Assembly (NCBI RefSeq): GCF_988243305.1
Contig: NZ_OZ547136.1
Length of the DNA stretch: 64,000 bases
Reading direction: 5' to 3' (one strand)
Both the position numbers and the translations under genes were made by a program. This document shows, piece by piece, positions 26,008-55,429 of the stretch (positions are counted from its first letter, which is position 1; each line of letters begins with the position of its first letter). The notes under the pieces were generated by a model. It did no database searches. It was given only the letters and a program-made list of their open reading frames with translations, and was not told where the DNA came from.

Positions 26008-28414
26008 GGGAGTTCTACCGCAGGGGCGGGGAACTCCAAGTGATATCCATCATCGCATCCAGTGCGTCCGGTTTATCCCCGCTGACGCGGGGAACTCCGT
26101 GTGGGAACTACGAGTAGGCCGTTTTCTCTCGGTTTATCCCCGCTGGCGCGGGGAACTCCAATATCCGCGCCGTACCCAGCAAATGCTGACGGTTTATCCC
26201 CGCTGGCGCGGGGAACTCTACCGCATATTCACCAAAGTCCTCTATTTTGTCGGTTTATCCCCGCTGACGCGGGGAACTCGAGCGGACGCTCGACGATAAC
26301 ACCGATTTGCAAGGTTTATCCCCGCTGGCGCGGGGAACTCCAATATCCGCGCCGTACCCAGCAAATGCTGACGGTTTATCCCCGCTGGCGCGGGGAACTC
26401 TACCGCATATTCACCAAAGTCCTCTATTTTGTCGGTTTATCCCCGCTGACGCGGGGAACTCGAGCGGACGCTCGACGATAACACCGATTTGCAAGGTTTA
26501 TCCCCGCTGACGCGGGGAACTCCCGTCAGGCCGCGTCAATCGTTTAGCCCACGGCGGTTTATCCCCGCTGACGCGGGGAACTCACATGGAGTACATCATG
26601 AACAGACCACTGACCCGGTTTATCCCCGCTGACGCGGGGAACTCAGATTTTAGATGAGATGAAGTTGAATAGTTTACGGTTTATCCCCGCTGACGCGGGG
26701 AACTCATAAATCATTCTTTTCTTTCATCACCTACGACCGGTTTATCCCCGCTGACGCGGGAAACTCCTGTAGACGTTCTTTGGTAATGGTTTTCATCACG
26801 GTTTATCCCCGCTGACGCGGGGAACTCAATACTACAAACATCAAATGCGTTATTTACTGCGGTTTATCCCCGCTGACGCGGGGAACTCTAAGCCGTGACG
26901 AGGGTCGCCGCTGGCGTCAACGGTTTATCCCCGCTGACGCGGGGAACTCTTACAGATGTAATAAATCACACATGTAATAGCCGGTTTATCCCCGCTGACG
27001 CGGGGAACTCGATCGGGAGGATTTTAAACGCTGGTCAATGGCCGGTTTATCCCCGCTGACGCGGGGAACTCAATTACCGGGTGTCTAGTGCTCATACGCA
27101 GCCCGGTTTATCCCCGCTGACGCGGGGAACTCAATTACTGGGTGTCTCGTGCTCATATGCAGCCCGGTTTATCCCCGCTGACGCGGGGAACTCTTTCCCC
27201 CATGCGGGAAGCGCGTGCGATTTCGCGGTTTATCCCCGCTGACGCGGGGAACTCTTTTAGGTGTGCTGAGATTATTTGTCGCGGCGCGGTTTATCCCCGC
27301 TGACGCGGGGAACTCTTATCAGCAGCCAGACCAGCATTCGGGGAATACGGTTTATCCCCGCTGACGCGGGGAACTCATGATCAAATCAGTGCCGAGCTGG
27401 TGCAGATGCGGTTTATCCCCGCTGACGCGGGGAACTCAAAACAGGTTTGCCTGTCGCCCTCCGGTCCACCGGTTTATCCCCGCTGACGCGGGGAACTCCA
27501 ATCCGTTTATTACTTTATTTCTGCCGCCTTCGGTTTATCCCCGCTGACGCGGGGAACTCCAACGTTTTGGTAATCAACGGAAGGAGCTTCGCGGTTTATC
27601 CCCGCTGACGCGGGGAACTCAATAAATTCAGGAGCGGTAACGATATATTTAACGGTTTATCCCCGCTGACGCGGGGAACTCGTAAAGGCGTTGCCCTGTT
27701 CCGTCGCTGTTGTCGGTTTATCCCCGCTGACGCGGGGAACTCATCCGTTAATTATTGAGAGAGCTATCAGCTATCGGTTTATCCCCGCTGACGCGGGGAA
27801 CTCACCATCAGTCCTTGAGCCGAGAAAATCGCCGCCGGTTTATCCCCGCTGACGCGGGGAACTCAGCTATATACGGGAGCAAGATTATAATATCTGCGGT
27901 TTATCCCCGCTGACGCGGGGAACTCTTTCGCCCAATCTTGCGCGCTCTGACCTATCTGGGTTTATCCCCGCTGACGCGGGGAACTCGTGGGTGGCTGCCG
28001 TCGCGGCTGGTGCTGCGGCGGTTTATCCCCGCTGACGCGGGGAACTCACTGAGTATTTGCCTCAAGTGATGTACTGGTCCGGTTTATCCCCGCTGACGCG
28101 GGGAACTCAATATCGCCGTCAATGCCAATATTTTTCCGCGCGGTTTATCCCCGCTGACGCGGGGAACTCGTGAAAATAGAGGAAGGGCGCATTATTGGCG
28201 GCGGTTTATCCCCGCTGACGCGGGGAACTCGCGTCAGAAGCGATTGAATCAATAGCGGATCACGGTTTATCCCCGCTGACGCGGGGAACTCGTCCATTTT
28301 CCCCCTGGAGGCTGTAATTCACCGCGGTTTATCCCCGCTGACGCGGGGAACTCTTATTCAGCCAACGCGGCGCGGGGCTTGTTTGCGGTTTATCCCCGCT
28401 GACGCGGGGAACTC
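26008..28414 (-). CRISPR. Type I-E CRISPR array: 39 full 29-bp repeats plus one degenerate terminal repeat, 39 spacers (36 unique)
   Basis: Repeat CGGTTTATCCCCGCTG(G/A)CGCGGGGAACTC on the plus strand at about 61-bp period from 26069 to 28386; degenerate repeat 26008-26036 at the iap end; leader at the cas2 end, so the array is transcribed on the minus strand. Confidence 0.97.
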
Positions 28415-28519
28415 TCTAAAAGTATACATTTGTTCTTAAAGCATTTTTTCCCATAAAAACAACCCACCAACCTTAATGTAACATTTCCTTATTATTAAAG
28501 ATCAGCTAATTCTTTGTTT
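28415..28519 (-). promoter_or_regulatory. CRISPR leader
   Basis: AT-rich about 105-bp segment between the last repeat and the cas2 stop. Confidence 0.7.
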
Positions 28520-29723
<1,204 letters not shown>

Positions 29724-29738
29724 TTTATTACACCTAAA

Positions 29739-30338
29739 TCACAGTGGAGCCAAAGATAGCAAGCCACATCCCATCGATTTAGCTGGCCCAATACCTTGCT
29801 GTACAAGATCTATTAACGCTGGCGCGTCGTTGATGGTGATCACCCCTTCAAAGCAAACCGTTTGAATCTTTCCACTTTTACCATCACCAGAAAAATACTG
29901 TGGCCGTTCCGATATGGGATGCACATCTTCAACGCGCGCCGCATTGCCCAATTTACGTTGCAACCACGCGATTTGTTCTGCTTCTTTTATTAACGGAACC
30001 CGACAGCGTTTAATATTCCCTTTACTATCCAGGCGCTTTTGATTGTCGAGAATAGTTTTGATCGGATTTGCCCGAAGCCGAAAATAGAGTGGAACACCAA
30101 CCTGAAGTTGAAATTCAACCTGTTTAGTTTTAATGACTGTCGCAACAGCAGTTGAAACAGGCATTTGCGCTGACTGCAATAAAACATGACAGCCTTCTGG
30201 TGTGTTTCGCTTCTCAACATGAAAAAGAAAATCACGAGCAGCATCCGGTCTGTTTGGAAATAAATGCCATAATCCCTGGTGAAGTTGGTAAAGATCCCTG
30301 CTCCAGGCCCTGGCAATGATGACTTTACTGAGATACAT
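29739..30338 (-). CDS. casE: crRNA endoribonuclease Cas6e (CasE)
   Basis: 199-aa ORF MYLSKVIIARAWSRDLYQLHQGLWHLFPNRPDAARDFLFHVEKR... Confidence 0.95.
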   Translation of the reverse strand: MYLSKVIIARAWSRDLYQLHQGLWHLFPNRPDAARDFLFHVEKRNTPEGCHVLLQSAQMPVSTAVATVIKTKQVEFQLQVGVPLYFRLRANPIKTILDNQKRLDSKGNIKRCRVPLIKEAEQIAWLQRKLGNAARVEDVHPISERPQYFSGDGKSGKIQTVCFEGVITINDAPALIDLVQQGIGPAKSMGCGLLSLAPL

Positions 30339-30999
30339 CCATACCTCCTTTAATCACATACCATTCTCGGGAAGCAAATTGTCGAGGTAAGGTGATCATC
30401 GGTTCGTCGCGCGCCGTAAATTTTAAATGATGCCCTGTAACTGATTCCTCACTATAAATATCGCCGCCAACGGGCTCATAATTTAATAGCGCCTTCTGAG
30501 GATCCGATGCCTGACATGTCCCCAAAAAAAGCGGGTGTGTTAGTGGGCAACTTCTCCGCCCCAGGTAGGGTGTATACCGAGGCTTTAATACTGCTTTTTC
30601 AAGTTCTGAGATAACCATCGTTGCATGGGGTGTTAACCAGAGAGCGACGGTAAAGGAGGCATCACATAAATATTCGCGCCATGTTTGAATCGTTTCATGA
30701 CTTTTCAAACCACGGTAATCTTCTCGCGCTCCAAGGACTGTATGGTAATCACGCAACCCCGTTACAGACACACGACGATCGTCAAGAATGAGTTCATCGC
30801 AGCGCACTGCAAATTGCACACTCTCTGATAACACCTGTAATGAAGAAGTATCATCACGTTGGATCCCAAGACAAGCCCCGAGTAGCCCTAATAACCCGCT
30901 TCGGGTCGGAAAACTTCCGGTAGGTCGCGTTCCTTCAAAGGTCGGCAGCCCCCAGGCTTGCATTGGCCCAGCAAGCCGCAAGATCAAATAAGATCTCAT
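30325..30999 (-). CDS. casD: Cascade subunit Cas5e (CasD)
   Basis: ORF contains MRSYLILRLAGPMQAWGLPTFEGTRPTG...; start placed at the second ATG. Confidence 0.93.
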   Translation of the reverse strand: MRSYLILRLAGPMQAWGLPTFEGTRPTGSFPTRSGLLGLLGACLGIQRDDTSSLQVLSESVQFAVRCDELILDDRRVSVTGLRDYHTVLGAREDYRGLKSHETIQTWREYLCDASFTVALWLTPHATMVISELEKAVLKPRYTPYLGRRSCPLTHPLFLGTCQASDPQKALLNYEPVGGDIYSEESVTGHHLKFTARDEPMITLPRQFASREWYVIKGGMDVSQ

Positions 31000-31001
31000 G
31001 T

Positions 31002-32093
31002 TCATGCCTCGCCATTATTACGAACCCAGGATTTTAACTGTTCTAAAGTAGGCATTTGTTTAACTTGAGCAGTAATTGGGTCTACATCAGATAAGCTGAA
31101 TTGCGCAGCAGCTCCGTTCAGACCATATCCATTGGCAACGCGATCCCAATATTGATTAAACGCCTGTATAGACGGTTGCAAAAAGCCATCTTTCGCTTTA
31201 ACAGCTTTTTCAAAAGCATTTGCCATAGAAAGTGGCATATCGGAGAAATTAACCATTACCATATCCGCAGGGTTAAAAGCGGCATAAGTACGCTGTTTTG
31301 CTCCAGGGACCTCTGTTGCCAGCATATGAACAACATTGGTTGCAATTTCCAGAGCCTGCTCCCTGGAGGCACCACCTAAATTTTCCTGAAGTTGAGCGAG
31401 GTTAATGTTGGCGTAACGATAAAAAACACCCGATGAAAATTCCTGAGTTCCCAGATGTGCAGAACCTTGTTCCTGTAAATCATCTACAGCGGTGAACCAG
31501 TCAATATCTGAATCAACCTGATGAGTAGTGATCGCATGCGCAATGGACATTGCACCATCAACTTTTCCCAACTCACTCATCATGCCGCTGGTTGCCATTC
31601 TTCCGCTAAGCGCAATATCAACACCCTGCTGTAAATTCACACGTATGGCGGCAATATCTTCCTTAAGAACTTTGAGCAGCTTTTTATCATCCAGATTATC
31701 AGCCTCTGCTTTTGCAACCTGCTCACAGAACCAGGCTATTTCTCCCACAACCCAGGGAGTAACCGCATCGGCAGAAATCTTTTCGGCTTCATCAACTAAT
31801 TTACCGGAGAGCAGCGCTAATGTCTTATCGATGATTTTTTGGTCAAAACGTTCACCAAGTTTTTGCCGAAGAACATCACGTAATTGTGCAAGATGAATTG
31901 TTCTGAGACTGGATTCACCAATATTTTGTGCGTAATAATCACTTTTACGCATCGCACGTTTAAGGCTTTGACTTGAAATTCTTACTCGTCTTTTCCCGCC
32001 GAAAATAGCGTCTTTCTGCATGTTCATATCGTCGCGGTTCAGACATGAAGGGCTGTGAGAGATCAGAACATGAATATTGATAAAGTTAGACAT
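31002..32093 (-). CDS. casC: Cascade backbone subunit Cas7e (CasC)
   Basis: 363-aa [52 protein letters not shown]... Confidence 0.95.
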
Positions 32094-32105
32094 AGAAAGG
32101 TTTCC

Positions 32106-32588
32106 TTACGCATTTTTGTTTGTGGTCAATACAAAATCTTCCAGAAGTTGCTGGCGTTCGCGCTTTCCCCACCAGGTCAACATCCTGGCCATTAATGGCC
32201 AGTCAAGTACGGGTTCGGCGTGAGTAAGTAATCGACGTAACTGGACCATATCGGCTGTTCTGTCAGCCCGAATTAATTGAAAGATACGGCGCTCGTTAAT
32301 TCTTCCACTATTGGCTAAAGCTCTTCCCAACGAGATACCTGTTGTTTGCTCCGGTTTTTTGTCCTGATGTCGGATGACATTCTTTCCTGCGCTCAGGCAA
32401 AACACCATGCGCAAAAGAGCCTGCTGGTGACGTGGGTTTTCCCAACCAAAAGGTTGCACCAACCGATAAAACGCAGGGATATCGCGTAATTCATCAGGTT
32501 CTGAAACACGTCTAATTTGCGCACATGCTCCATTATCCAGTTGTTGCCAGGCTCGATATAAAGCCATTGCATCAATTTCATCAGCCAT
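32106..32588 (-). CDS. casB: Cascade small subunit Cse2 (CasB)
   Basis: 160-aa ORF MADEIDAMALYRAWQQLDNGACAQIRRVSEPDELRDIPAFYRLVQPFG... Confidence 0.95.
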   Translation of the reverse strand: MADEIDAMALYRAWQQLDNGACAQIRRVSEPDELRDIPAFYRLVQPFGWENPRHQQALLRMVFCLSAGKNVIRHQDKKPEQTTGISLGRALANSGRINERRIFQLIRADRTADMVQLRRLLTHAEPVLDWPLMARMLTWWGKRERQQLLEDFVLTTNKNA

Positions 32589-34089
32589 TTGATGGCCCTC
32601 CTTGCGGTTTTAACTCCCGTAAATGTTTGTATAGCGTGGCGCGGGCAAGCGCTAATGTGCTTATTAATTTAGGATGATGTGCATAGGGAGCTACAGATTG
32701 ATTAAATAGCATTTCACACAATTGATGAAGTTTGTCTCGTAAATCAGCTATTACCTCATCAGCCTGGGAAAAATTAATTTTCGCCAATACATCTGGAATT
32801 AATAATTCACTCTGTCGATAGAAATGCCTTTCTGCAGTCTCATGAACAGAGACTCCGGCCCCTTTGAAGTCTTTATTTTTAAACCCTTCTGCAAAGGTAT
32901 ATAACGCCTTGCGTAAGGCTGTTTTATACCCCAAACCAACAGTCACTATTTCGTTTATAACATTGCCGTATTGTTGCCACCCCTGATTAAACATCAGCAC
33001 ATCATGACGTCGTTCAAGAATAGATGCTTGATTATTACGATATCCCCCCATAATCAATTCAAGAGGACTTTGCGGCGCAATATTTCTGAATTGATTCACA
33101 ACCGCCGCCACGCGATTTCCATTTTCATTTTGAATAATCTTATCTACCACAACTCGGCTGATTTGCGTCCATGATGGTGCGGAGGTGGTGAAAGCAAGAA
33201 ATTTTTCCTCAACCTTCCCTTTCTTGACTGTTACCAGACAAGGGGAATGCGGATGGGGCCATAGTCCATTAACTGTAAAGGTAAATTTTTCCTTAAGAAA
33301 ACCGGTATAACGCAAATTGCTTTCCTGTCCACAGCAAGAACATTTACCAATCCCAATGGGATCGCATAGTTCAATATGCGCTGGTTGCCAGAATAAACCA
33401 CGGACAAACCCAATTGACGAAGCTGGCACAGATTCATTGGGCTTGATAGGCTTAATCCAGGTAGGTTGGTTTTCCGTATGTAATTCATTGGGAAATTGTT
33501 TTTGAAGACGAGGTATTGTGAGGACATTGAGTAATACCGTCGAGCGAAGATCGATCCCACATACGAAGGTGGTTATAGGTGTTCCTCCACGTAAACCGCT
33601 TTTAAAGCCACCACCAAAACCAGGTGCCTGATTCGCCTGGTTGAATAACGCAATCGCAGTGCATCCACCACATAATGCTTCACCCTGCCCCGGTTGATTG
33701 ACAAATGCACAATTCGTCGCGCCGCTTACCCCAGCCAACAGTTTTTCCATTGGAGTCACATCATTTGCTTTGACACCTTTGGTCTGCATAAAGGGATGTT
33801 CTGCGTGATTAAGGTAGAACATATCTATCCACGGCGCGATGAGTTGTTGAAACTCATCTTCAGTGAGCGGATTCATTATGCGATGTCGAAATTCAACGTC
33901 ATCTTTTGCCGGGGCGATAATTTGTCCAATGCAAACCAGCAGTGCTAAAGCGGCCAGTTCCATATCGTCACGGGGCAAACTTAATCGCCACTGATCTCTA
34001 CTGCAGTATAGCGATTGCAGATTTAGGATTTGGACTTTCCCCCCGTTTCGCGGGCGTACAGGGATCCAGTTATCAATAAGCAAATTCAT
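32581..34089 (-). CDS. casA: Cascade large subunit Cse1 (CasA)
   Basis: 502-aa ORF MNLLIDNWIPVRPRNGGKVQILNLQSLYCSRDQWRLSLPRDDMELAA... Confidence 0.95.
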   Translation of the reverse strand: MNLLIDNWIPVRPRNGGKVQILNLQSLYCSRDQWRLSLPRDDMELAALALLVCIGQIIAPAKDDVEFRHRIMNPLTEDEFQQLIAPWIDMFYLNHAEHPFMQTKGVKANDVTPMEKLLAGVSGATNCAFVNQPGQGEALCGGCTAIALFNQANQAPGFGGGFKSGLRGGTPITTFVCGIDLRSTVLLNVLTIPRLQKQFPNELHTENQPTWIKPIKPNESVPASSIGFVRGLFWQPAHIELCDPIGIGKCSCCGQESNLRYTGFLKEKFTFTVNGLWPHPHSPCLVTVKKGKVEEKFLAFTTSAPSWTQISRVVVDKIIQNENGNRVAAVVNQFRNIAPQSPLELIMGGYRNNQASILERRHDVLMFNQGWQQYGNVINEIVTVGLGYKTALRKALYTFAEGFKNKDFKGAGVSVHETAERHFYRQSELLIPDVLAKINFSQADEVIADLRDKLHQLCEMLFNQSVAPYAHHPKLISTLALARATLYKHLRELKPQGGPSNG

Positions 34090-34504
34090 TTGTTCTCCTT
34101 CATATGCTCCGACATTTCTCCTGCATTTCTATACGTCGGAACACTTCCGTTATCGGTAAAAACAAAGAAAAAATACGGCGTAATTAATTCAATAATCACA
34201 TTCACTGCAAAAATATATTCATTGGTTTAATACAATTAACCTATGCATATATTAAGATGTGTTGAATTGTTTAAAGACAATAATGCATGCATTTCAAATC
34301 TGCAAGTTATTCGTTTTATTATCAAAGAAATTTTTTAGTTATAATAATTACCATAAATTTTATTACATAAAATATTCATACTGTGAATATAAAATCTCAT
34401 ACCGGGAAATTAAAAGAAGATGTACATTGTGCACCTTCCCTACTTAAGTAGGGATAAACCGTTATTGGTCTTGTTATCGTCATTGATACCAATCATTCCC
34501 GAAG
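34090..34504 (-). promoter_or_regulatory. AT-rich casA-cas3 intergenic region; expected site of the Cascade operon promoter and divergent antisense promoter
   Basis: 415-bp strongly AT-rich non-coding segment directly upstream of casA; in E. coli type I-E loci this region carries the H-NS-repressed, LeuO-activated promoter (established knowledge; exact -10/-35 elements not pinned down here). Confidence 0.45.
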
Positions 34505-37171
34505 TTATTTGGGATTTGCAGGGATGACTCTGGTCATCCCTTCATCCCGAGTGTAGGTAATAACAATATTATTACCCTGCCAGATCCATCCATCCTGATT
34601 CTGTTTCCCTTCCAGCCAAAGTAACCCATCTTCATCTACTACTTCAGAAAAACTACGTTTCCAGGTGAAGGGTACATTGACGCGATTAAGTGCTAACGCC
34701 TCATACTGCTGTTCATGACTTAGGTCCTCGTAGACCTGGCCATCGAGCAGTTGTTTACCTGAAGACGTTTGTACATAAGGCAATAATGGCAGGCTCATTT
34801 CCCCATCCCTCGTTACCGCAAGAATGGTTTCATCGTTATCCTGCAAGCTATATTCTTCAGCCCACTGCAGAACCTTACGAGCCTTGAACCTTTTTTCACA
34901 CTCGGCGCTTTCAAACTTATCCATGCCTTTGATGACCCATTCTGGCTCATCCATTTCCGCATCATCGTAAATGCTATCCAGCCATTGCCGGTAGGCATCA
35001 GGGAAAAATAAGGATGCTCCATTAAGTTCCTCAATATGTTGCTGCGTCCGCCACATGACTCTAACGTTGCTATAAATATGCTCATGTCGTCCGTAACCTT
35101 CGCCATCAGGCAGCAAAATGGTGGCAAGAGGAATCTCAAAACCAACGGGGCGATATTTACGATGATGGCGATGTAAACGGCCCAATCGTTGGAAAAGCAA
35201 ATCTGCGGGACAATGCTGAGTAATTAACCAATCAAAATCAACGTCGAGTGATTGTTCCACGACCTGTGTGGCAACAAGTATTCTTCCAACATTTCGCTCC
35301 CCATTTTTCCCAAAATTACTAATAACACGATTCTCTTTTTCACGGCGATCGTTCAGCGTAAAGCGCGCATGAAACAAATCTATATCTACTTGCGTGTTAT
35401 TTAGTTCCTTTAACCGTTGGTGGCATAGTTGTGCAACATCAACCAAATTGCAGATAAGACAGACTTGTGCACCCGCATTTGCCGCTGCGATCATTCGCTC
35501 TAACATCGTAAGGTCAGGTAACATGTCAGCTAAATAAATAGGTTCTGGCTGAATCGAAAAGCGGGGCGGGAGTTGTTCTGGATGAGCTAACAGATCAAAA
35601 CGTTGCGCACCATTCACACCTCGCCAGTTAATGAGTGGATATGCGGAGTTATTTTCCTCTGGATCTGTATGCAGACCATAAGTATCCAGAAGTTTCTGTT
35701 TTTGTTTCATTGGTAGAGTTGCGGAAAGAAGAATAACACTCCCCCCCACATCAGCCTGAGCCTTGAGCACAGCCTCCAGCAAGCCGTTCATATACGTGTC
35801 GTAAGCATGAACTTCATCAACAATTAAAACACTTCGACCAATTCCCAAACCACGGATAAAGCGGTGTTTAACTGGCAATACCGATATCAACACCTGATCA
35901 ATCGTGCAAACGCCTATTTGCCCAAGAAACACTTTCTTATTGCTTTGTGACAACCATTGGCAACACTGAACCCACGCTTCTTCTTGCCCCTGCTCAGTAA
36001 ATGCGCGTGATTTTATTGATTGAAAAAGGTGGTTAAAACGTGAATTACCATGAGCAAGAATAAGATTTGGGGAGGTAAATAAACGGCTCGCGTTCGCTTC
36101 CATTCTGCTGAGCATTGCATTTGCAGTAGCTTGTGTAGGGAGGGCAAAAATAACACTATCCGCAAGTTGTTGGTCAATAAGTTTCCAGGCATAGGCCAGC
36201 GCTGTTTCGGTTTTACCTGATCCCGTAGGTGCCTCAATCACCGTCAGCCCGGGAGCTGTAGGAAGAGCATCAACCAACACCTGTAATTGTCTTGGTTGAT
36301 AGCCATTGTCCAGTAAGGCATGTACGCCGTCATAACTACGCTTATTTGATACAAGGCCACTCAACTCAAGTACCCGACACGCATCCTGTTGTCTATCCTG
36401 AAAATATTTTCTTAGCGCTTGTATGCCTGAAGGTGCATCTTCTTTGAATAGAAAGGTATCCGTTGTGGTCCAGGAACCTAACCAGTCAGCAAGCGAGCAA
36501 AAACCTGCTAACAATGATGAACAATCAGGTGGTATATCGTTTATAGATAACCCGGCTGGTGTTAAAAATAATGCTTCGAGTACAGATATCCACTCCTCAC
36601 GAGCCTGTTTATCTTGCGCAGCATAAGATGCCAGAGAAGCTGGCATTTCCCAACGCGACTTATCTTGATCCTGGGAATGTAATATAAAACCATGATGTCC
36701 TGTAACGGCCTCTACCCAAGGAAACCAGGACTCATAAGGATGAGGAGCGGCATCAAAAAAACTGAAAAAATCCCCGGGAGATTGCTCTGAAAGTGAATCC
36801 TGGTTAAACCAATACAGACCGGCTGCACCATGATTAAATTTACGGCACATTTGTGTTGATGGACCATTAAGTGATGGCGTTGCAGGATTTAATTTCAGCC
36901 AACTTTCTGCTGATTTATATTGGAATCGTATATCAAACTTTCCGATATCATGAAGGGCAATGAAAAATAACAGCCAGGCTTTCACCTTCTGTTTTGATAG
37001 CATTTCATTTCGGCAAAAAGCATTTTGTAGTACGACTGATTGATCCCACCAGCAATCTGCAACAGCTGCAACATCCAGGCAATGATAAATCAACAGATGA
37101 ATATCATTTCCTTTCGTCAGGCTTTTTGAGGATTTCCCCCAGTAATGACATATATATTTAAAAGGTTCCAT
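34505..37171 (-). CDS. cas3: CRISPR-associated nuclease/helicase Cas3 (type I-E)
   Basis: 888-aa ORF MEPFKYICHYWGKSSKSLTKGNDIHLLIYHCLDVAAV... with HD domain followed by DEAD/DEAH helicase motifs (APTGSGKT, DEVH). Confidence 0.95.
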   Translation of the reverse strand: MEPFKYICHYWGKSSKSLTKGNDIHLLIYHCLDVAAVADCWWDQSVVLQNAFCRNEMLSKQKVKAWLLFFIALHDIGKFDIRFQYKSAESWLKLNPATPSLNGPSTQMCRKFNHGAAGLYWFNQDSLSEQSPGDFFSFFDAAPHPYESWFPWVEAVTGHHGFILHSQDQDKSRWEMPASLASYAAQDKQAREEWISVLEALFLTPAGLSINDIPPDCSSLLAGFCSLADWLGSWTTTDTFLFKEDAPSGIQALRKYFQDRQQDACRVLELSGLVSNKRSYDGVHALLDNGYQPRQLQVLVDALPTAPGLTVIEAPTGSGKTETALAYAWKLIDQQLADSVIFALPTQATANAMLSRMEANASRLFTSPNLILAHGNSRFNHLFQSIKSRAFTEQGQEEAWVQCCQWLSQSNKKVFLGQIGVCTIDQVLISVLPVKHRFIRGLGIGRSVLIVDEVHAYDTYMNGLLEAVLKAQADVGGSVILLSATLPMKQKQKLLDTYGLHTDPEENNSAYPLINWRGVNGAQRFDLLAHPEQLPPRFSIQPEPIYLADMLPDLTMLERMIAAANAGAQVCLICNLVDVAQLCHQRLKELNNTQVDIDLFHARFTLNDRREKENRVISNFGKNGERNVGRILVATQVVEQSLDVDFDWLITQHCPADLLFQRLGRLHRHHRKYRPVGFEIPLATILLPDGEGYGRHEHIYSNVRVMWRTQQHIEELNGASLFFPDAYRQWLDSIYDDAEMDEPEWVIKGMDKFESAECEKRFKARKVLQWAEEYSLQDNDETILAVTRDGEMSLPLLPYVQTSSGKQLLDGQVYEDLSHEQQYEALALNRVNVPFTWKRSFSEVVDEDGLLWLEGKQNQDGWIWQGNNIVITYTRDEGMTRVIPANPK

Positions 37172-37477
37172 TAATAGCCTCCCTGTTTTTTTAGTATTAT
37201 CGATGATATCAGTGGACTATTTTTCGATGCTGCTCATAAATATCGAATTACAGTGATATACACATGTCTTGCCTCCCTGCAAAGAAGAGACTAACATTCG
37301 AATTGCTTAGGTTCGAACGCTGGCCTCAGGTTGATAGAAATATCGCCTGGGGCTTTTGTCCATCTGGAACCTCGCGAATGCTTAACGCCAGACAGCCTCA
37401 AGCACCCAACGCCATTCTATACCTGATAATTCTTCCAGCGGCGTTCACGTTTAAAATCAGGAATGCTGCTCGCAAAA

Positions 37478-51845: not shown

Positions 51846-53324
51846 ATGTCGAAAAAATACATCATAGGGATTGATGGCGGAAGTCAGAGCACAAAAGTGG
51901 TGATGTATGATCTGGAAGGTAATGTGGTTTGCGAAGGCAAAGGCTTATTGCAGCCGATGCACACGCCAGATGCCGATACCGCAGAACATCCTGACGACGA
52001 TTTATGGGCATCATTATGTTTTGCCGGTCACGATTTGATGAGTCAGTTTGCCGGGAATAAAGAAGATATTGTCGGTATTGGTCTGGGATCCATCCGTTGC
52101 TGCCGTGCGTTATTGAAAGCCGATGGCACGCCAGCTGCGCCGTTGATTAGCTGGCAGGATGCACGCGTTACACGCCCTTACGAACATACGAATCCTGACG
52201 TGGCATATGTCACCTCTTTTTCAGGTTATCTGACGCATCGCTTAACCGGCGAGTTTAAAGACAATATCGCCAACTATTTTGGTCAGTGGCCGGTGGATTA
52301 TAAGACCTGGGCATGGAGTGAAGATGCCGCAGTCATGGAGAAGTTTAATATCCCCCGTCATATGCTGTTTGATGTGCAAATGCCGGGCACTGTTCTTGGG
52401 CATATCACTCCTCAAGCCGCGCTGGCGACACATTTCCCAGCTGGGCTGCCGGTTGTTTGTACCACCAGTGATAAACCGGTAGAAGCACTGGGAGCCGGGT
52501 TACTGGATGATGAAACTGCGGTAATTTCTCTTGGCACTTACATCGCGTTGATGATGAACGGCAAAGCACTGCCGAAAGATCCGGTGGCGTACTGGCCGAT
52601 TATGTCTTCTATTCCGCAAACATTGCTGTATGAAGGTTACGGTATTCGCAAAGGCATGTGGACGGTGAGCTGGCTACGCGACATGTTAGGCGAGTCGTTA
52701 ATTCAGGATGCCAAAGCACAGGATCTTTCACCGGAAGATTTGCTCAACAAAAAAGCGTCTTGTGTGCCGCCAGGCTGTAATGGTCTGATGACGGTGCTGG
52801 ACTGGCTGACCAATCCGTGGGAACCGTACAAACGCGGGATTATGATTGGCTTTGATTCCAGCATGGATTACGCATGGATATATCGTTCGATACTGGAAAG
52901 CGTGGCGCTGACGCTGAAGAACAATTACGACAATATGTGTAATGAAATGAATCACTTTGCAAAGCATGTGATCATTACTGGCGGCGGTTCGAACAGCGAT
53001 CTGTTTATGCAGATTTTTGCCGACGTGTTCAACCTTCCGGCACGCCGTAACGCCATTAATGGTTGTGCAAGCCTGGGGGCAGCGATTAATACGGCGGTAG
53101 GTCTGGGGCTATACCCGGATTACGCAACGGCTGTCGACAAAATGGTTCGCGTGAAAGATATCTTTATGCCTGTTGAGAACAATGCCAAACGCTACGACGC
53201 GATGAATAAAGGCATTTTCAAGGAGTTAACCAAACATACTGATGTAATCCTGAAAAAATCGTATGAAGTGATGCATGGGGAATTGGGGAATGCGGATTCG
53301 ATCCAGAGCTGGTCGAATGCGTAA
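51846..53324 (+). CDS. ygcE: FGGY-family carbohydrate kinase
   Basis: 492-aa ORF MSKKYIIGIDGGSQSTKVVMYDLEGNVVCEGKG... Confidence 0.85.
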   Translation: MSKKYIIGIDGGSQSTKVVMYDLEGNVVCEGKGLLQPMHTPDADTAEHPDDDLWASLCFAGHDLMSQFAGNKEDIVGIGLGSIRCCRALLKADGTPAAPLISWQDARVTRPYEHTNPDVAYVTSFSGYLTHRLTGEFKDNIANYFGQWPVDYKTWAWSEDAAVMEKFNIPRHMLFDVQMPGTVLGHITPQAALATHFPAGLPVVCTTSDKPVEALGAGLLDDETAVISLGTYIALMMNGKALPKDPVAYWPIMSSIPQTLLYEGYGIRKGMWTVSWLRDMLGESLIQDAKAQDLSPEDLLNKKASCVPPGCNGLMTVLDWLTNPWEPYKRGIMIGFDSSMDYAWIYRSILESVALTLKNNYDNMCNEMNHFAKHVIITGGGSNSDLFMQIFADVFNLPARRNAINGCASLGAAINTAVGLGLYPDYATAVDKMVRVKDIFMPVENNAKRYDAMNKGIFKELTKHTDVILKKSYEVMHGELGNADSIQSWSNA

Positions 53325-53370
53325 GTGAGGAAGGCCGGGCGGGAAACTGCCCGGCCTGAACATACCTGAA

Positions 53371-53508
53371 TGGTTATCCCCGCTGACGTGGGGAACATAA
53401 GTTCGACAACTTAAAAAATGATAACAAGTCCGGTTTATCCCCGCTGATGCAGGGAACATAATAAAAACTTTAACTAGTTCGGTTTATCCCTGTTGTTACA
53501 AGGAATAT
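53371..53508 (-). CRISPR. Degenerate CRISPR remnant (three decayed repeat-like units)
   Basis: TGGTTATCCCCGCTGACGTGGGGAACAT / CGGTTTATCCCCGCTGATGCAGGGAACAT / CGGTTTATCCCTGTTGTTACAAGGAATAT separated by 32-nt and about 20-nt spacers. Confidence 0.7.
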
Positions 53509-53962
53509 TAACTACACTCGATGTCCTTAGAATAAAAGACAACGCAAACCGTACTTTATCAATTTTCATTTAAAGTATGAACTGGATATCTTTATTCATA
53601 AGAACTATTCATCAACAGCCTATAGAGACGGTTATGTAAAACCACTCATTAGCCTCAAAACAAAGACAAATTTCCAGATTTATTACTTAATCAATGAATA
53701 ATAAGCTTAAAAAACAATCTATTATCCTAAAGAAAAAATTAACAAACATCAATTCAATATTAAAAAAATAATATATGATAATTTCTTAATGATTTAAGTA
53801 TCATACAACTAACACTTTAATTAAATTTGATTTTTTGTATCGATAATTGTGAACTTATCATATATGGAGAGCTATTTTGAACATGAGGTGTTACGTGGAT
53901 ATATTGCTTAATACGAGTACTGCTAATATAAAAACTTGAGAAAGAGATAACGGGTTATATGG

Positions 53963-54418
53963 TGGTTTATCCCCGCTGGCGCGGGGAACTCCGTCAGTGT
54001 GCCAGTTGCTACTGTTTCCCATACGGTTTATCCCCGCTGACGCGGGGAACTCATCAGTGATATCCAACATTGCGGAGCTAAACGCGGTTTATCCCCGCTG
54101 GCGCGGGGAACTCTATAAATGTGCCATATACGGCGTTTGTTGCCTCGGTTTATCCCCGCTGGCGCGGGGAACTCCTCCCGGTGATGCGGGTTATGTGGCC
54201 TGCCGCCGGTTTATCCCCGCTGGCGCGGGGAACTCTTCGCCGCGTCAACAATTCGGACCTGTAAATCCGGTTTATCCCCGCTGGCGCGGGGAACTCATCC
54301 GGCGAACGCGCTACAGAGTACAGTTCACCGGTTTATCCCCGCTGGCGCGGGGAACTCGGAAACCGCCCCGGCGGTGGTTAGCTGTTTGCCGGTTTATCCC
54401 CGCTGGCGCGGGGAACTC
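53963..54418 (-). CRISPR. Second type I-E CRISPR array: 8 repeats, 7 spacers
   Basis: Same 29-bp repeat at 61-bp period (53963, 54024, 54085, 54146, 54207, 54268, 54329, 54390); AT-rich leader-like sequence beginning TCTCTAAA at the high-coordinate end, as in array 1. Confidence 0.93.
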
Positions 54419-54750
54419 TCTAAACATAACCTATTATTAATTAATAATTTTTTAAGCCAGTCACAATCTACCAACTTTATAGTATCACACAAACAACACA
54501 TCCATTATGTTAAAGAGCACTTAATCCATTGATTGAAAAGCTAAATATTTAAAGTAATCCTATACCGACTAAAATCTACCAAACTTTACCGCAATAATTT
54601 TCACTCCAGCGAAAAATTAATGCCGCAGAATTTGTAGAGAATGCTAATGATTAGCCCTGGATGGGTAAAATGGAGGAGTTTTCAGAGGCGACAAACAATA
54701 TAAATGAGTAGAAATCTTTACAGGTTCCACCCATTTATAACGCTTATAAA
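54419..54750 (-). promoter_or_regulatory. Leader of the second CRISPR array
   Basis: AT-rich non-coding region adjoining the first repeat on the transcription-proximal side; starts with the same TCTCTAAA junction seen at the array-1 leader. Confidence 0.55.
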
Positions 54751-54757
54751 TGTTTAA

Positions 54758-55429
54758 TCAGGCAATATTTAGATATTTATGTGTTTGCATCGACAAACGC
54801 CAATTACGAGCAATGCAGGTTTCAATGCACAATCGTGTGGCATCATCCTTTTGGCTAATCGGCTGCAGTGCAATGACTCGCGGTTTATCATCGGTCAGCG
54901 TCGCCAAAAGTTCATCCAGTGCTTCAATATCACGTACGCGTCCCACTGGATGCTTGATTTCGTTGGCTCGCTCCAGTGCCTGTGACAACACTTCATAGCC
55001 GCCGCGCATGTTCAGCTTTGGCGATACGGTAACCCAGGTATTCGGTGTGCAGCGTACCTCATGAGTACCACTGGTTTCGATCTGGCAGCTAAAACCGTTC
55101 TTTTCGAGCAGGTCAGTCAGTGGCAGCAAATCATGAATGCAAGGCTCACCACCCGTAATCACCACATGCCGCGCGGTGTATCCCTGGCGACCAATGACAG
55201 CCAGCAAGTCTTCACTGCTCGCCGCCCCCCACTTATCACTCTCTTTGGTCTTCGCCAGAATGCTGAAAAGGGAGACTTCCCGATCCTCAAGCTTTTCCCA
55301 GGTGTGTTTGGTGTCGCACCAGGCACAGCCAACCGGGCATCCCTGTAAACGAATAAAAATGGCGGGGACGCCGGTAAAGTAACCCTCACCTTGCAGGGTC
55401 TGGAACATCTCGTTAATCGGGTACTGCAT
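54758..55429 (-). CDS. queE: 7-carboxy-7-deazaguanine synthase QueE (radical SAM)
   Basis: 223-aa ORF MQYPINEMFQTLQGEGYFTGVPAIFIRLQGCPVGCAWCDTKHTW... Confidence 0.93.
   Translation of the reverse strand: MQYPINEMFQTLQGEGYFTGVPAIFIRLQGCPVGCAWCDTKHTWEKLEDREVSLFSILAKTKESDKWGAASSEDLLAVIGRQGYTARHVVITGGEPCIHDLLPLTDLLEKNGFSCQIETSGTHEVRCTPNTWVTVSPKLNMRGGYEVLSQALERANEIKHPVGRVRDIEALDELLATLTDDKPRVIALQPISQKDDATRLCIETCIARNWRLSMQTHKYLNIA

Follow-up and report, generated by a model that had tools for sequence, protein, structure and literature searches.

The region between ygcE and queE is the canonical E. coli CRISPR-II locus, composed of CRISPR2.2 and CRISPR2.3, and is already known. It lies within a window of 64,000 nucleotides (contig NZ_OZ547136.1 of assembly GCF_988243305.1), the whole stretch of DNA that was analysed. 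Taking the observations together, it is very likely that CRISPR2.3 and its leader form a type I-E satellite array of the working type, and that CRISPR2.2 is an old relic that stands outside spacer acquisition. The names are those of the Diez-Villasenor 2010 nomenclature, as relayed in passages of PMC3903273, PMC4489801 and PMC3737337. This is one of the best-studied CRISPR loci, re-found here from raw sequence, and as submitted it contains nothing new; the classic assays of spacer acquisition in BL21-AI make use of CRISPR2.3 and its leader (PMC3737337). The coordinates, orientation and leader call are accurate, and the locus is usable as a positive control.

From left to right, the ygcE-queE gap holds a degenerate array, an AT-rich block, an 8-repeat array and an AT-rich leader (Table 1). 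CRISPR2.3 is situated between ygcE and ygcF (queE), with queE as the gene nearest leader 2.3, and in other E. coli genomes the matching stretch is labelled CRISPR by PGAP and has the same gene neighbours. Because the + strand carries the crRNA sense in reverse complement, the minus strand is the one from which both arrays are read; the degenerate array and CRISPR2.3 have the orientation of array 1, and the leaders of both live arrays are to the right. This common orientation had been proposed in the initial annotation and is borne out by the strand of the repeats. The same annotation described a second CRISPR locus with a leader-like sequence of its own, about 16 kb from the cas operon; the locus does have its own leader and no adjoining cas genes, and the annotated coordinates prove correct to within 1 bp. 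The distance from the cas3 start codon (37171) to R1 (53370) is 16.2 kb, and 25.9 kb separate cas2 (28520) from leader 2.3.

Table 1. Coordinates of CRISPR-associated features and flanking genes in the window (position 1 is the first letter of the 64,000-nt stretch).
Feature	Coordinates	Strand	Remarks
Array 1 (CRISPR2.1) and leader	26069-28519	-	39 repeats at 26069-28414; degenerate terminal repeat at 26008
Leader of array 1 (leader 2.1)	28415-28519	-	nearly identical to K-12 leader 2.1
Type I-E cas operon	28520-37171	-	cas2, cas1, cas6e, cas5, cas7, casB, casA, cas3
ygcE	51846-53324	+	left flanking gene
Remnant repeat R1	53370-53398	-	ATGGTTATCCCCGCTGACGTGGGGAACAT; 7 mismatches to consensus
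Remnant 'spacer' S1	53399-53430	-	32 nt, AAGTTCGACAACTTAAAAAATGATAACAAGTC (GACUUGUUAUCAUUUUUUAAGUUGUCGAACUU)
Remnant repeat R2	53431-53459	-	CGGTTTATCCCCGCTGATGCAGGGAACAT; 5 mismatches to consensus
Remnant 'spacer' S2	53460-53479	-	only 20 nt
Remnant repeat R3	53480-53508	-	CGGTTTATCCCTGTTGTTACAAGGAATAT; 10 substitutions relative to consensus
AT-rich block	53509-53962	.	454 bp, 26.4% GC; separates CRISPR2.2 from CRISPR2.3
CRISPR2.3 array	53963-54418	-	8 repeats of 29 nt, 7 spacers of 32 nt, exact 61-nt period
Ancestral anchor (spacer 1, A-variant repeat, spacer 2)	53992-54084	-	leader-distal end
Spacer 6	54297-54328	-	known protospacer
Spacer 7	54358-54389	-	leader-proximal, newest position
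Leader 2.3 and remainder to queE	54419-54757	-	31% GC; functional core is the first 60-120 nt
queE (ygcF)	54758-55429	-	right flanking gene

A 29-mer that recurs eight times with an exact 61-nt period is impossible as a chance pattern. The repeats are of the CGGTTTATCCCCGCTGGCGCGGGGAACTC type, the consensus used for comparison throughout, with 0-1 mismatches, and together with the 32-nt spacers and the 61-nt period they define a type I-E ('type 2 repeat') array. The initial annotation was right in reporting 8 repeats, a leader and a gap of about 450 bp (454 bp as measured), and wrong in calling the repeats perfect, as only 6 of the 8 have the consensus sequence: the distal repeat begins with T rather than C, and repeat 2 (54024-54052) has G17A, which is the dominant variant of array 1. 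The predicted fold of the repeat, ....(((((((....)))))))......., comprises a 7-bp stem and a 4-nt loop at -15.1 kcal/mol (z = -3.6 relative to shuffled sequences), the Cas6e-type hairpin expected of type I-E repeats. There is no match to the Rfam CRISPR-DR families at the gathering threshold anywhere in the window, nor at E values up to 1 across 53300-54800; array 1, an undoubted CRISPR, is also without an Rfam match, and the miss is thus attributable to the library and its thresholds rather than to the sequence. Sub-threshold Rfam matches to mir-279 and sX8 in the region (E ~0.4) were dismissed as noise, and the sole gathering-level match in the window is a sok RNA elsewhere.

Leader 2.3 is identical to its K-12 counterpart at 60/61 positions, and at 329/339 over the whole stretch to queE. 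Position 28, which is inside the published IHF region, is an A and not a G as in K-12, and the two closest genomes have the same base. Both leaders had been said to start with TCTCTAAA, which takes in the last two bases of the repeat and to that extent does not hold; the common start that remains is TCTAAA (at 28415 and 54419). An alignment of the two leaders, which the initial annotation proposed as a check, shows significant similarity reaching well past the first few bases. Without gaps, 38 of the first 61 positions are identical (a value reached in 0/20,000 shuffles), and local alignment over ~105 nt gives z = 4.2 (0/300 dinucleotide shuffles). Three blocks are common to leaders 2.1 and 2.3 in the same ungapped register, namely TCTAAA (1-6), TTTTTT (30-35) and ACCAAC (52-57), and these fall in the regions published for Cas1-Cas2 (-1 to -4), IHF (-9 to -35) and an upstream element (-50 to -55), respectively (positions from PMC10011333). 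To judge from its composition and motifs, the segment adjoining CRISPR2.3 looks like a genuine leader, with a TCTA junction, an AT-rich interval at -9 to -35, and CTACCA at -50 to -55 conserved with leader 2.1. A scan for the leader 2.3 block with one genome per species returned E. albertii, E69 and MOD1-EC7003.

Cognate type I-E cas genes are provided by the operon adjacent to array 1. All eight ORFs are full length (305, 199, 226, 363, 160, 502 and 888 aa, plus cas2), and the operon stretch aligns without a break to an annotated operon at 99.3% identity. This operon would be expected to serve both arrays. That the second array can use only the distant Cas1-Cas2, as had been suggested, is reasonable and agrees with PMC2886076 and PMC3737337, and the statement covers the 64-kb window rather than the whole genome. 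In K-12 and BL21, CRISPR2.3 is transcribed and processed, and it acquires spacers with Cas1-Cas2 (PMC10011333, PMC3737337). From this published K-12 and BL21 work we infer transcription, processing, IHF dependence and integration in trans for the array described here: a promoter in the leader would drive minus-strand transcription of CRISPR2.3, Cas6e would cleave the transcript at the repeat hairpins, and Cas1-Cas2 from the operon 26 kb away would insert new spacers at the leader-repeat junction, with IHF bending the leader such that the upstream leader element contacts the integrase. CRISPR2.3 looks live in its repeats and leader; H-NS normally silences the type I-E system in E. coli (PMC10011333), and 'live-looking' therefore means competent and not necessarily active.

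The spacer set of CRISPR2.3 is new in detail, and is ordinary strain-level variation. The ygcE-queE arrays of other E. coli were compared with it, as had been recommended; the layout is the same in K-12 and the spacers differ. Turnover of spacers across strains is clear in CRISPR2.3 from the spacer content of other genomes, and of the seven spacers in the window, just one and zero recur in the two genomes that are closest to it (99.2-99.3% identity across 25 kb). Neither of the two observations that the initial annotation had named as telling against it (leaders without similarity past the first few bases, and spacers without turnover) was thus made. Sharing of spacers between strains is mainly at the leader-distal end, where strain 135 also starts its 2.3 array with the anchor block, each of the two spacers differing there by one mismatch. 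Spacer 2 is present in ~295 genomes, and in strain 64A:C it is the first spacer; among 5426 complete genomes, spacers 1 and 3 occur in one genome each and spacers 4 and 5 are absent.

A target is identified for 1/7 spacers. Spacer 6 matches, at 32/32 positions, part of a gene for a tail protein in a myovirus-type prophage carried by E. coli SE11 (L003, 3005-3036), and the protospacer is followed by CTT on the + strand, corresponding to an AAG PAM in the crRNA sense; the target search that had been proposed thus yielded one protospacer with its PAM. No targets of the other six spacers are found in the phage, plasmid or IMG/VR collections, the last of these searched by exact match with spacers 3, 4, 5 and 7. 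Matches of spacer 2 and of the remnant in the plasmid collection are to chromosomes mislabelled as plasmids. A 32-mer identical to spacer 7 is present in ~100 other genomes, and in 3/3 of those inspected it occupies an internal position among the spacers of the iap-side array, whose repeats are of the AACAC type. We note that the presence of spacer 7 in array 1 of ~100 other genomes is a poor fit to a simple, recent and private acquisition.

CRISPR2.2 consists of three repeats and two invariable spacers on the ygcE side, 454 bp from CRISPR2.3. A three-unit degenerate array beside an intact one had been reported, and it is indeed present, its start at 53370 being 1 bp from where it had been placed. 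The repeats are spaced 61 and then 49 nt from start to start. R1 begins 45 nt past the ygcE stop codon, has the form ATGGTTATCC...AACAT, and is at the identical place in K-12 and in every E. coli locus of the split layout that was fetched. All three repeats have a private variant of the 3' end, terminating in AT (AACAT or AATAT) and not in TC. In the predicted folds, a single A.C mismatch interrupts the R1 stem of this allele when it is read in the crRNA sense (-9.7 kcal/mol) whereas the K-12 allele is intact (-15.1 kcal/mol), R2, at -12.1 kcal/mol, retains the 7-bp hairpin, one pair of which is G.U, as well as the AUAAACCG end, and R3 has the same 7-pair hairpin at -7.9 kcal/mol. Compensatory-looking changes in the R3 stem were considered as a sign of selection at the RNA level and rejected, as P is ~0.01 only under an unrealistic uniform model. 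S2 resembles the last 17 nt of S1 in register (12/17 identical), which suggests that it probably originated by a 49-bp tandem duplication rather than by acquisition. S1 has no phage match, and its sole match in IMG/VR (L025) is a chromosomal ygcE-queE fragment and not a protospacer; an exact search for S1 with one genome per species returned nothing, and the single E. coli representative in that set presumably does not carry the remnant.

The initial annotation took the decayed remnant beside an intact array as a sign of array turnover in this strain, such that CRISPR2.2 would be a recently decayed array next to its replacement, with turnover continuing in the lineage. The 5 to 10 substitutions per repeat, the spacer cut to 20 nt and the evident turnover of the neighbouring CRISPR2.3 between strains all accord with this. 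However, the remnant, including both of its 'spacers', is the same in K-12, O157:H7 and 13 diverse others, and it is present in 4151/5426 complete E. coli genomes, in 3650 of which (88%) it is at least 99% identical to the copy in the window. Among the 15 strains, which were picked by divergence of the AT block and are not phylogenetically independent, 6/139 remnant sites segregate (4%), compared with 13-20% in flanking sequences: 47/249 ygcE third-codon positions (Fisher p = 2.5e-5 relative to the remnant), 9/45 sites between the ygcE stop codon and R1, and 61/453 in the AT block (p = 0.002). No segregating sites are found in S1 and S2 together (0/52; S1 alone, 0/32) in these strains. In the divergent Escherichia lineage E69 the order is R1-S1-R3 and then a homologous AT block, R2 and S2 are missing, a difference of 49 bp, and S1 differs at 2/32 positions; divergence from E69 is 4.4% in the remnant, 17.6% at ygcE third-codon positions and 23.5% in the AT block. 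These sequence comparisons indicate that the remnant is fixed across the species and was present before E. coli and E69 separated. It is less variable than its flanks and is thus not currently decaying. Recent decay is extremely improbable on these grounds, and the proposed link to turnover in this strain does not survive the comparison.

Of the non-coding segments in the intergenic region, the relic shows the strongest conservation species-wide, and this is the one point perhaps worth attention. Variation in the remnant 'spacers' and in its repeats, which can still form the hairpin, is lower than in the working leader 2.3 and much lower than at the neutral sites to either side, and bands of identity across the species concur with the lower variation of the remnant; this low variability sits badly with a purely functionless relic. 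One explanation is that the remnant is kept by selection as a functional element, be it a fixed S1 crRNA, a decoy for Cas6e or Cascade, or an element acting in cis on the transcripts that converge from ygcE and CRISPR2.3. The segregating-site counts, the small divergence from E69, the concurring identity bands, and the 7-bp hairpin kept by all three repeats, with AUAAACCG kept in R2, are as expected of such an element. Retention of the R3 hairpin is, however, not significant (P = 0.08-0.16 in simulations under a GC-to-AT transition model), the R1 allele of the window has its stem mismatch, and no S1 target is found in the phage, plasmid or IMG/VR collections. Moreover, the remnant is missing from ~23% of genomes, the sampled strains are non-independent and were chosen by AT-block divergence, and nearby variation is patchy and apparently shaped by recombination. 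We regard selective maintenance as rather unlikely. The narrower proposal of a domesticated piece of a former array under purifying selection, which would act through a Cas6e-processed S1 crRNA or as a cis element in a non-immune host function, is more doubtful still. If selection does explain the conservation, then CRISPR2.2 would be a CRISPR fragment co-opted for a host function. The genomes missing the remnant comprise single arrays, IS replacement or other losses.

The AT block (26.4% GC, compared with 50.5% for the whole window) is a single-copy chromosomal sequence in 4164/5426 genomes, with most copies only 90-95% identical to that of the window; the window allele is a minority one, with at least 99% identity in only 23/5426 genomes. 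It is 91.6% identical to K-12 and 76% to E69, and evolves at about the neutral rate. It wholly contains no ORF longer than 31 aa, and has no match in Rfam or in the phage collection. A mobile element was considered and rejected, the block being single copy, never on plasmids, without phage similarity and with no ORF over 31 aa. One way to account for the present arrangement is that a single continuous array was split by insertion of the 454-bp block, and that the three orphaned leader-distal units then decayed. E. albertii and some E. coli do have one array running from R1 to leader 2.3 without the AT block, the distal repeats of arrays are commonly degenerate (PMC2886076), and no leader is detected after R3, even at E values up to 100, by an nhmmer profile built from five leaders that does detect leaders 2.1 (E = 7e-29) and 2.3 (E = 3e-23). 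Set against this are the private AACAT/AATAT ends of all the remnant repeats, where the first repeat of single arrays has AACTC or AACCC, the single-copy nature of the block together with its lack of repeats, transposase, phage similarity or target-site duplication, and the occurrence of the split layout in the divergent E69. Such a splitting is quite improbable.

A second possibility is that CRISPR2.2 was once an independent array with the first ~100 nt of the AT block as its decayed leader, and that the queE-side unit of a tandem pair took over. The private 3' variant is expected if the remnant repeats were copied from their own leader-proximal repeat, and the junction AT|TAACTACAC may be compared with TC|TAAACATAAC in leader 2.3. 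With the 142 nt directly following R3, leader 2.1 gives an alignment above the shuffled level (62/103 columns identical; z = 3.6, score reached in 1/300 shuffles), and the aligned columns include ACAAC..AACC and TTAAAG blocks. Yet the same 142 nt have no similarity to leader 2.3 (z = -0.7), the score is within noise when the whole AT block is used (z = 1.4), 1 in 300 is weak given that several comparisons were made, and the null result of the five-leader profile applies here also. We consider this origin somewhat unlikely. The preferred reading is of CRISPR2.2 as an old relic that would no longer take part in acquisition and has no recognisable leader; single continuous arrays would be secondary products of deletion between R1 and a CRISPR2.3 repeat. 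Strains with a single array appear to derive from the split layout by deletion, in that their first repeat is a hybrid of an R1 5' end and a local CRISPR2.3 3' end, the pattern of a repeat-to-repeat deletion. A hybrid first repeat also fits an ancestral single array with a later change to the R1 3' end in E. coli. H207, which is without the AT block, was considered as a clean single array and rejected, since its locus reflects an IS3/IS1 replacement.

Among known systems, the closest is the CRISPR-II locus of K-12, which has the same flanking genes, order, orientation and spacing as the window, is identical to it at 182/184 positions across the remnant and left flank, and likewise has the first CRISPR2.3 repeat in its T-initial form. 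It differs in that none of its six CRISPR2.3 spacers is common to the seven in the window, and its CRISPR2.3 repeats end in AACAC (the 'A' variant) rather than AACTC (the 'T' variant). Within the window, CRISPR2.1 has the 29-nt repeat family, 32-nt spacers, orientation and cas operon in common with CRISPR2.3; however, it adjoins cas2, is far longer (39 repeats without the degenerate terminal copy) and has G17A repeats, and its leader is only ~60% identical to leader 2.3, the two E. coli leaders having been called 'very different' (PMC2886076). The single 'CRISPR2.2-3' arrays of E. coli 2012C-4221 and E. albertii NBRC 107761 are at the same position past the ygcE terminator hairpin and have the same leader 2.3, but they contain no S1, R2, S2, R3 or AT block, and their hybrid first repeat joins an R1-type 5' end (ATGGTTATCC) to a normal CRISPR2.3-type 3' end. 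Salmonella CRISPR2, near ygcF, is similarly a satellite of the same repeat cluster that is served in trans by the cas genes on the CRISPR1 side (PMC2886076), although the Salmonella CRISPR1 and CRISPR2 leaders, at >65% identity, are closer to each other than the E. coli pair (PMC2886076).

A more complex organization than a single CRISPR array is seen between ygcE and queE, where two sets of the 29-nt E. coli CRISPR repeat lie on the same strand as those of array 1 (CRISPR2.1, beside cas2), in the shared orientation given in the initial annotation. A degenerate remnant (CRISPR2.2, with repeats R1 to R3 and 'spacers' S1 and S2) is followed by an AT-rich block and by an eight-repeat array, CRISPR2.3, with its leader (leader 2.3). 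The + strand is the reverse complement of the crRNA sense at both arrays, which are thus read on the minus strand with their leaders to the right. Six of the eight CRISPR2.3 repeats are perfect, as had been reported for all of them, but the distal repeat has an initial T and repeat 2 is a G17A variant, typical of array 1. The 25 kb spanning array 1 to ygcE, used as a query, align in a single piece with E. coli Z1323HEC0462 at 99.3%, and the gene annotation was transferred from that genome. Every cas gene is a full-length ORF; 16.2 kb separate the start of cas3 from the remnant, and 25.9 kb separate cas2 from leader 2.3. Between cas3 and cysH there is a full-length match to the sok antitoxin RNA (Rfam RF01794; 104 bits, gathering score 59), at the position of the small RNA SokX in the K-12 annotation; presence of hok-sok at this site has been treated as a marker that distinguishes cas-operon variants (PMC3903273).

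Positions in the window of the two CRISPR loci and neighbouring features, with copies of shared spacers in comparison sequences (L handles)
Feature	Position	Strand	Remarks
Array 1 duplication	26130-26522		block of three repeat-spacer units (182-183 bp), duplicated in tandem
Array 1 spacer AATTACCGGGTGTCTAGTGCTCATACGCAGCC	27072-27103
Array 1 spacer AATTACTGGGTGTCTCGTGCTCATATGCAGCC	27133-27164
Array 1 spacer TTTCCCCCATGCGGGAAGCGCGTGCGATTTCG	27194-27225		GN02270 copy, array 2.3: L001 4054-4085
Leader 2.1	28415 onward
cas2	28520-28804	-
cas1, cas6e, cas5, cas7, casB, casA	up to 34089	-
cas3	34505-37171	-
sok RNA	37251-37407	-
cysHIJ, queD, ygcN-W, yqcE	between cas3 and ygcE	mixed
ygcE	51846-53324	+
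Hairpin GGCCGGGCGGGAAACTGCCCGGCC	53334-53357		directly 3' of ygcE stop codon
R1	53370-53398	-	7 mismatches vs CGGTTTATCCCCGCTGGCGCGGGGAACTC
R2	53431-53459	-	5 mismatches vs CGGTTTATCCCCGCTGGCGCGGGGAACTC
R3	53480-53508	-	10 substitutions vs CGGTTTATCCCCGCTGGCGCGGGGAACTC
S1, S2	between R1/R2 and R2/R3		32 nt and only 20 nt; repeat spacing 61, then 49
AT block	53509-53962		454 bp, 26.4% GC
CRISPR2.3	53963-54418	-	8 repeats, 7 spacers of 32 nt; exact 61-nt period
Spacer 6	54297-54328
Spacer 7	54358-54389		copies: L002 1504-1535, L014 1804-1835, L015 1804-1835
Leader 2.3	54419 onward
CRISPR2.3 to queE stop codon	to 54758		AT-rich, 31% GC
queE	54758-55429	-

The CRISPR2.3 repeats have a predicted Cas6e-type hairpin (-15.1 kcal/mol), and the array's leader is related to that of array 1 (leader 2.1). 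The two leaders share 38 identities in their first 61 nt without gaps, a level reached by none of 20,000 shuffles, and a gapped local alignment extends over ~105 nt (z = 4.2; 0/300 dinucleotide shuffles), so that the likeness exceeds the first few bases. The common start proposed for them, 'TCTCTAAA', holds in that both begin TCTAAA, but two of its bases belong to the repeat. The blocks in common, TCTAAA (1-6), TTTTTT (30-35) and ACCAAC (52-57), coincide with the published Cas1-Cas2 contact (-1 to -4), IHF site (-9 to -35) and upstream element (-50 to -55; PMC10011333). Each leader is near-identical to its K-12 counterpart, and the sole private difference in leader 2.3, A for G at position 28, is also found in the two closest relatives.

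Spacers of CRISPR2.3, numbered from the leader-distal end, are shared in a polar manner among 5426 complete genomes. Spacer 1 is found in one other genome (strain 135, with one mismatch, where it is also the first spacer), spacer 2 in ~295 and spacer 3 in Z1323HEC0462 only; spacers 4 and 5 are in no other genome, spacer 6 is in no other arrays and matches prophage protospacers only, and spacer 7 is in ~100 genomes, there in array 1. The whole distal block, from spacer 1 through the A-variant repeat to spacer 2, recurs in strain 135 and therefore represents an ancestral anchor. The two closest genomes show that spacers do turn over across strains: Z1323HEC0462 retains only spacer 3 of this set, and NY1601 has six unrelated spacers. 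A target was found for one of the seven, spacer 6, which matches at 32/32 positions a tail-protein gene of a myovirus-type prophage found in E. coli SE11 and in some ten further genomes. The match is followed on the + strand by CTT, an AAG PAM in the crRNA sense, and together these are the hallmark of genuine type I-E acquisition. The other spacers have no targets in phage or plasmid collections, and exact IMG/VR scans with spacers 3, 4, 5 and 7 gave no match.

The remnant has a different history. It had been read as a sign of array turnover, which is wrong: it is present in 4151 of the 5426 genomes (absent from ~23%), S1-R2-S2-R3 matches the window at 99% identity or more in 3650 of these, and the remnant occurs in E69, a divergent lineage that represents a species of its own in the genome collection. 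The E69 locus has R1-S1-R3 and then a homologous AT block, so the relic is older than the split of E. coli and E69. Exactly R2 and S2 (49 bp) are missing from E69, and S2 matches the tail of S1 in register at 12/17 positions; tandem duplication of 49 bp, or loss of this stretch in E69, would thus account for the third unit better than acquisition of a spacer.

Unexpectedly, the remnant varies little. Across 15 diverse E. coli strains, picked by AT-block divergence and phylogenetically non-independent, 6/139 remnant sites segregate (4%; S1 and S2, 0/52), against 47/249 ygcE third-codon positions (19%; Fisher p = 2.5e-5) and 61/453 AT-block sites (13.5%; p = 0.002). The corresponding counts are 9/45 (20%) from the ygcE stop codon to R1, and 6/61, 11/59 and 46/210 for leader nt 1-61, 62-120 and 121-330. 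Divergence from E69 is 4.4% in the remnant, 17.6% at ygcE third-codon positions and 23.5% in the AT block, which evolves at about the neutral rate. Species-wide, identity reaches 99% or more in 88% of genomes for the remnant, compared to 0.6% for the AT block, for which 95% lie in the 90-95% band. Real functional constraint on the relic is nevertheless rather unlikely: it is absent from many genomes, variation around it is patchy, apparently as a result of recombination tracts, R1 of the window itself carries a mismatch in its stem, and the compensatory-looking changes that preserve the hairpin of R3 lack significance when GC-to-AT transitions are modelled (P = 0.08-0.16).

We note that the hairpin following ygcE has no T-run after it, and ygcE transcripts may therefore enter the remnant, on which CRISPR2.3 transcripts may converge from the opposite side; a terminator scan of 53300-54800 returned no site. 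The private ..AACAT ending of R1 and R2 forms an ATG on the minus strand, from which ORFs of 68 aa (53398 to 53192) and 77 aa (53459 to 53226) run antisense into ygcE; both are probably spurious.

In E. albertii NBRC 107761 and E. coli 2012C-4221, which lack the AT block, a single short array extends from R1 directly to leader 2.3. Its first repeat in both is a hybrid with the R1 5' end (ATGGTTATCC) and the 3' end of that strain's own CRISPR2.3 repeats (AACCC or AACTC), whereas R1, R2 and R3 of split genomes all terminate in AACAT or AATAT. A hybrid of this kind would be expected if R1 had recombined with a CRISPR2.3 repeat and the DNA between them had been lost, and these repeat ends make the split layout the likelier ancestral state; the converse, an original single array into which the AT block was later inserted, has little chance of being correct. 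The AT block is single-copy and chromosomal, with no phage match, no ORF longer than 31 aa and no Rfam match. Its first part is possibly, if doubtfully, a decayed CRISPR2.2 leader, in that its initial 142 nt show similarity to leader 2.1 (z = 3.6; 1/300 shuffles reach the score), but they are unlike leader 2.3 (z = -0.7) and a five-leader profile finds no match in the block at E values as high as 100. The window's version of the block is a minority allele, with at least 99% identity in only 23/5426 genomes and 90-95% in 3965; differences from K-12 are concentrated in two patches, and 53575-53625 and 53925-53962 are among the near-invariant stretches.

Some spacers are common to both loci. Spacer 7 is an internal iap-side spacer in all three examined of the ~100 genomes that have it, in arrays with AACAC-type repeats and the other cas variant, reflecting either independent acquisition of the same protospacer or exchange between arrays. 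In the reverse case, array 1 spacer TTTCCCCCATGCGGGAAGCGCGTGCGATTTCG is spacer 2 of the GN02270 ygcE-queE array. A survey of 51 genomes reported no spacers common to the two loci (PMC2886076). The leader-distal duplication in array 1 (TRF period 182, 2.5 copies, 93% match) includes one 31-nt spacer, and NY1601 has a single copy of the block. Neighbouring spacers AATTACCGGGTGTCTAGTGCTCATACGCAGCC and AATTACTGGGTGTCTCGTGCTCATATGCAGCC, a pair also present in NY1601, differ at 3/32 positions, and it looks as if two variants of one invader each supplied the same protospacer.

Among the comparison sequences, L008 (E. coli NZ_LR536431.1, 340-2485) has IS3-family and IS1 elements in place of the remnant and nearly all of the AT block, with the CRISPR2.3 array and leader left intact. 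A 'viral' IMG/VR contig (L025, IMGVR_UViG_2531839665_000019) carries the ygcE-queE locus at 11477-13757; similarity to the window begins only 236 nt upstream of the ygcE stop codon, and the 11.5 kb before this point is different DNA, possibly a prophage or an island inserted in ygcE. Several ~4.8-4.9 Mb records labelled as E. coli plasmids (e.g. L004, NZ_CP134663.1) also carry the locus and are evidently chromosomes.

The same order of remnant, ~0.5-kb AT block, CRISPR array, leader and queE is present in K-12 MG1655, with 182/184 identities to the window in the remnant and left flank, 416/454 in the AT block and 329/339 from leader to queE. The CRISPR-II locus has been described as 'CRISPR2.2 and CRISPR2.3, separated by 0.5 kb', with leaders adjoining CRISPR2.1 and CRISPR2.3 only (PMC3903273), and CRISPR2.3 with leader 2.3 was the array used in a BL21-AI acquisition assay (PMC3737337). 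The initial annotation, which was right about a second, satellite array, about the related leaders and about spacer turnover, is thus a correct rediscovery of an already described locus.
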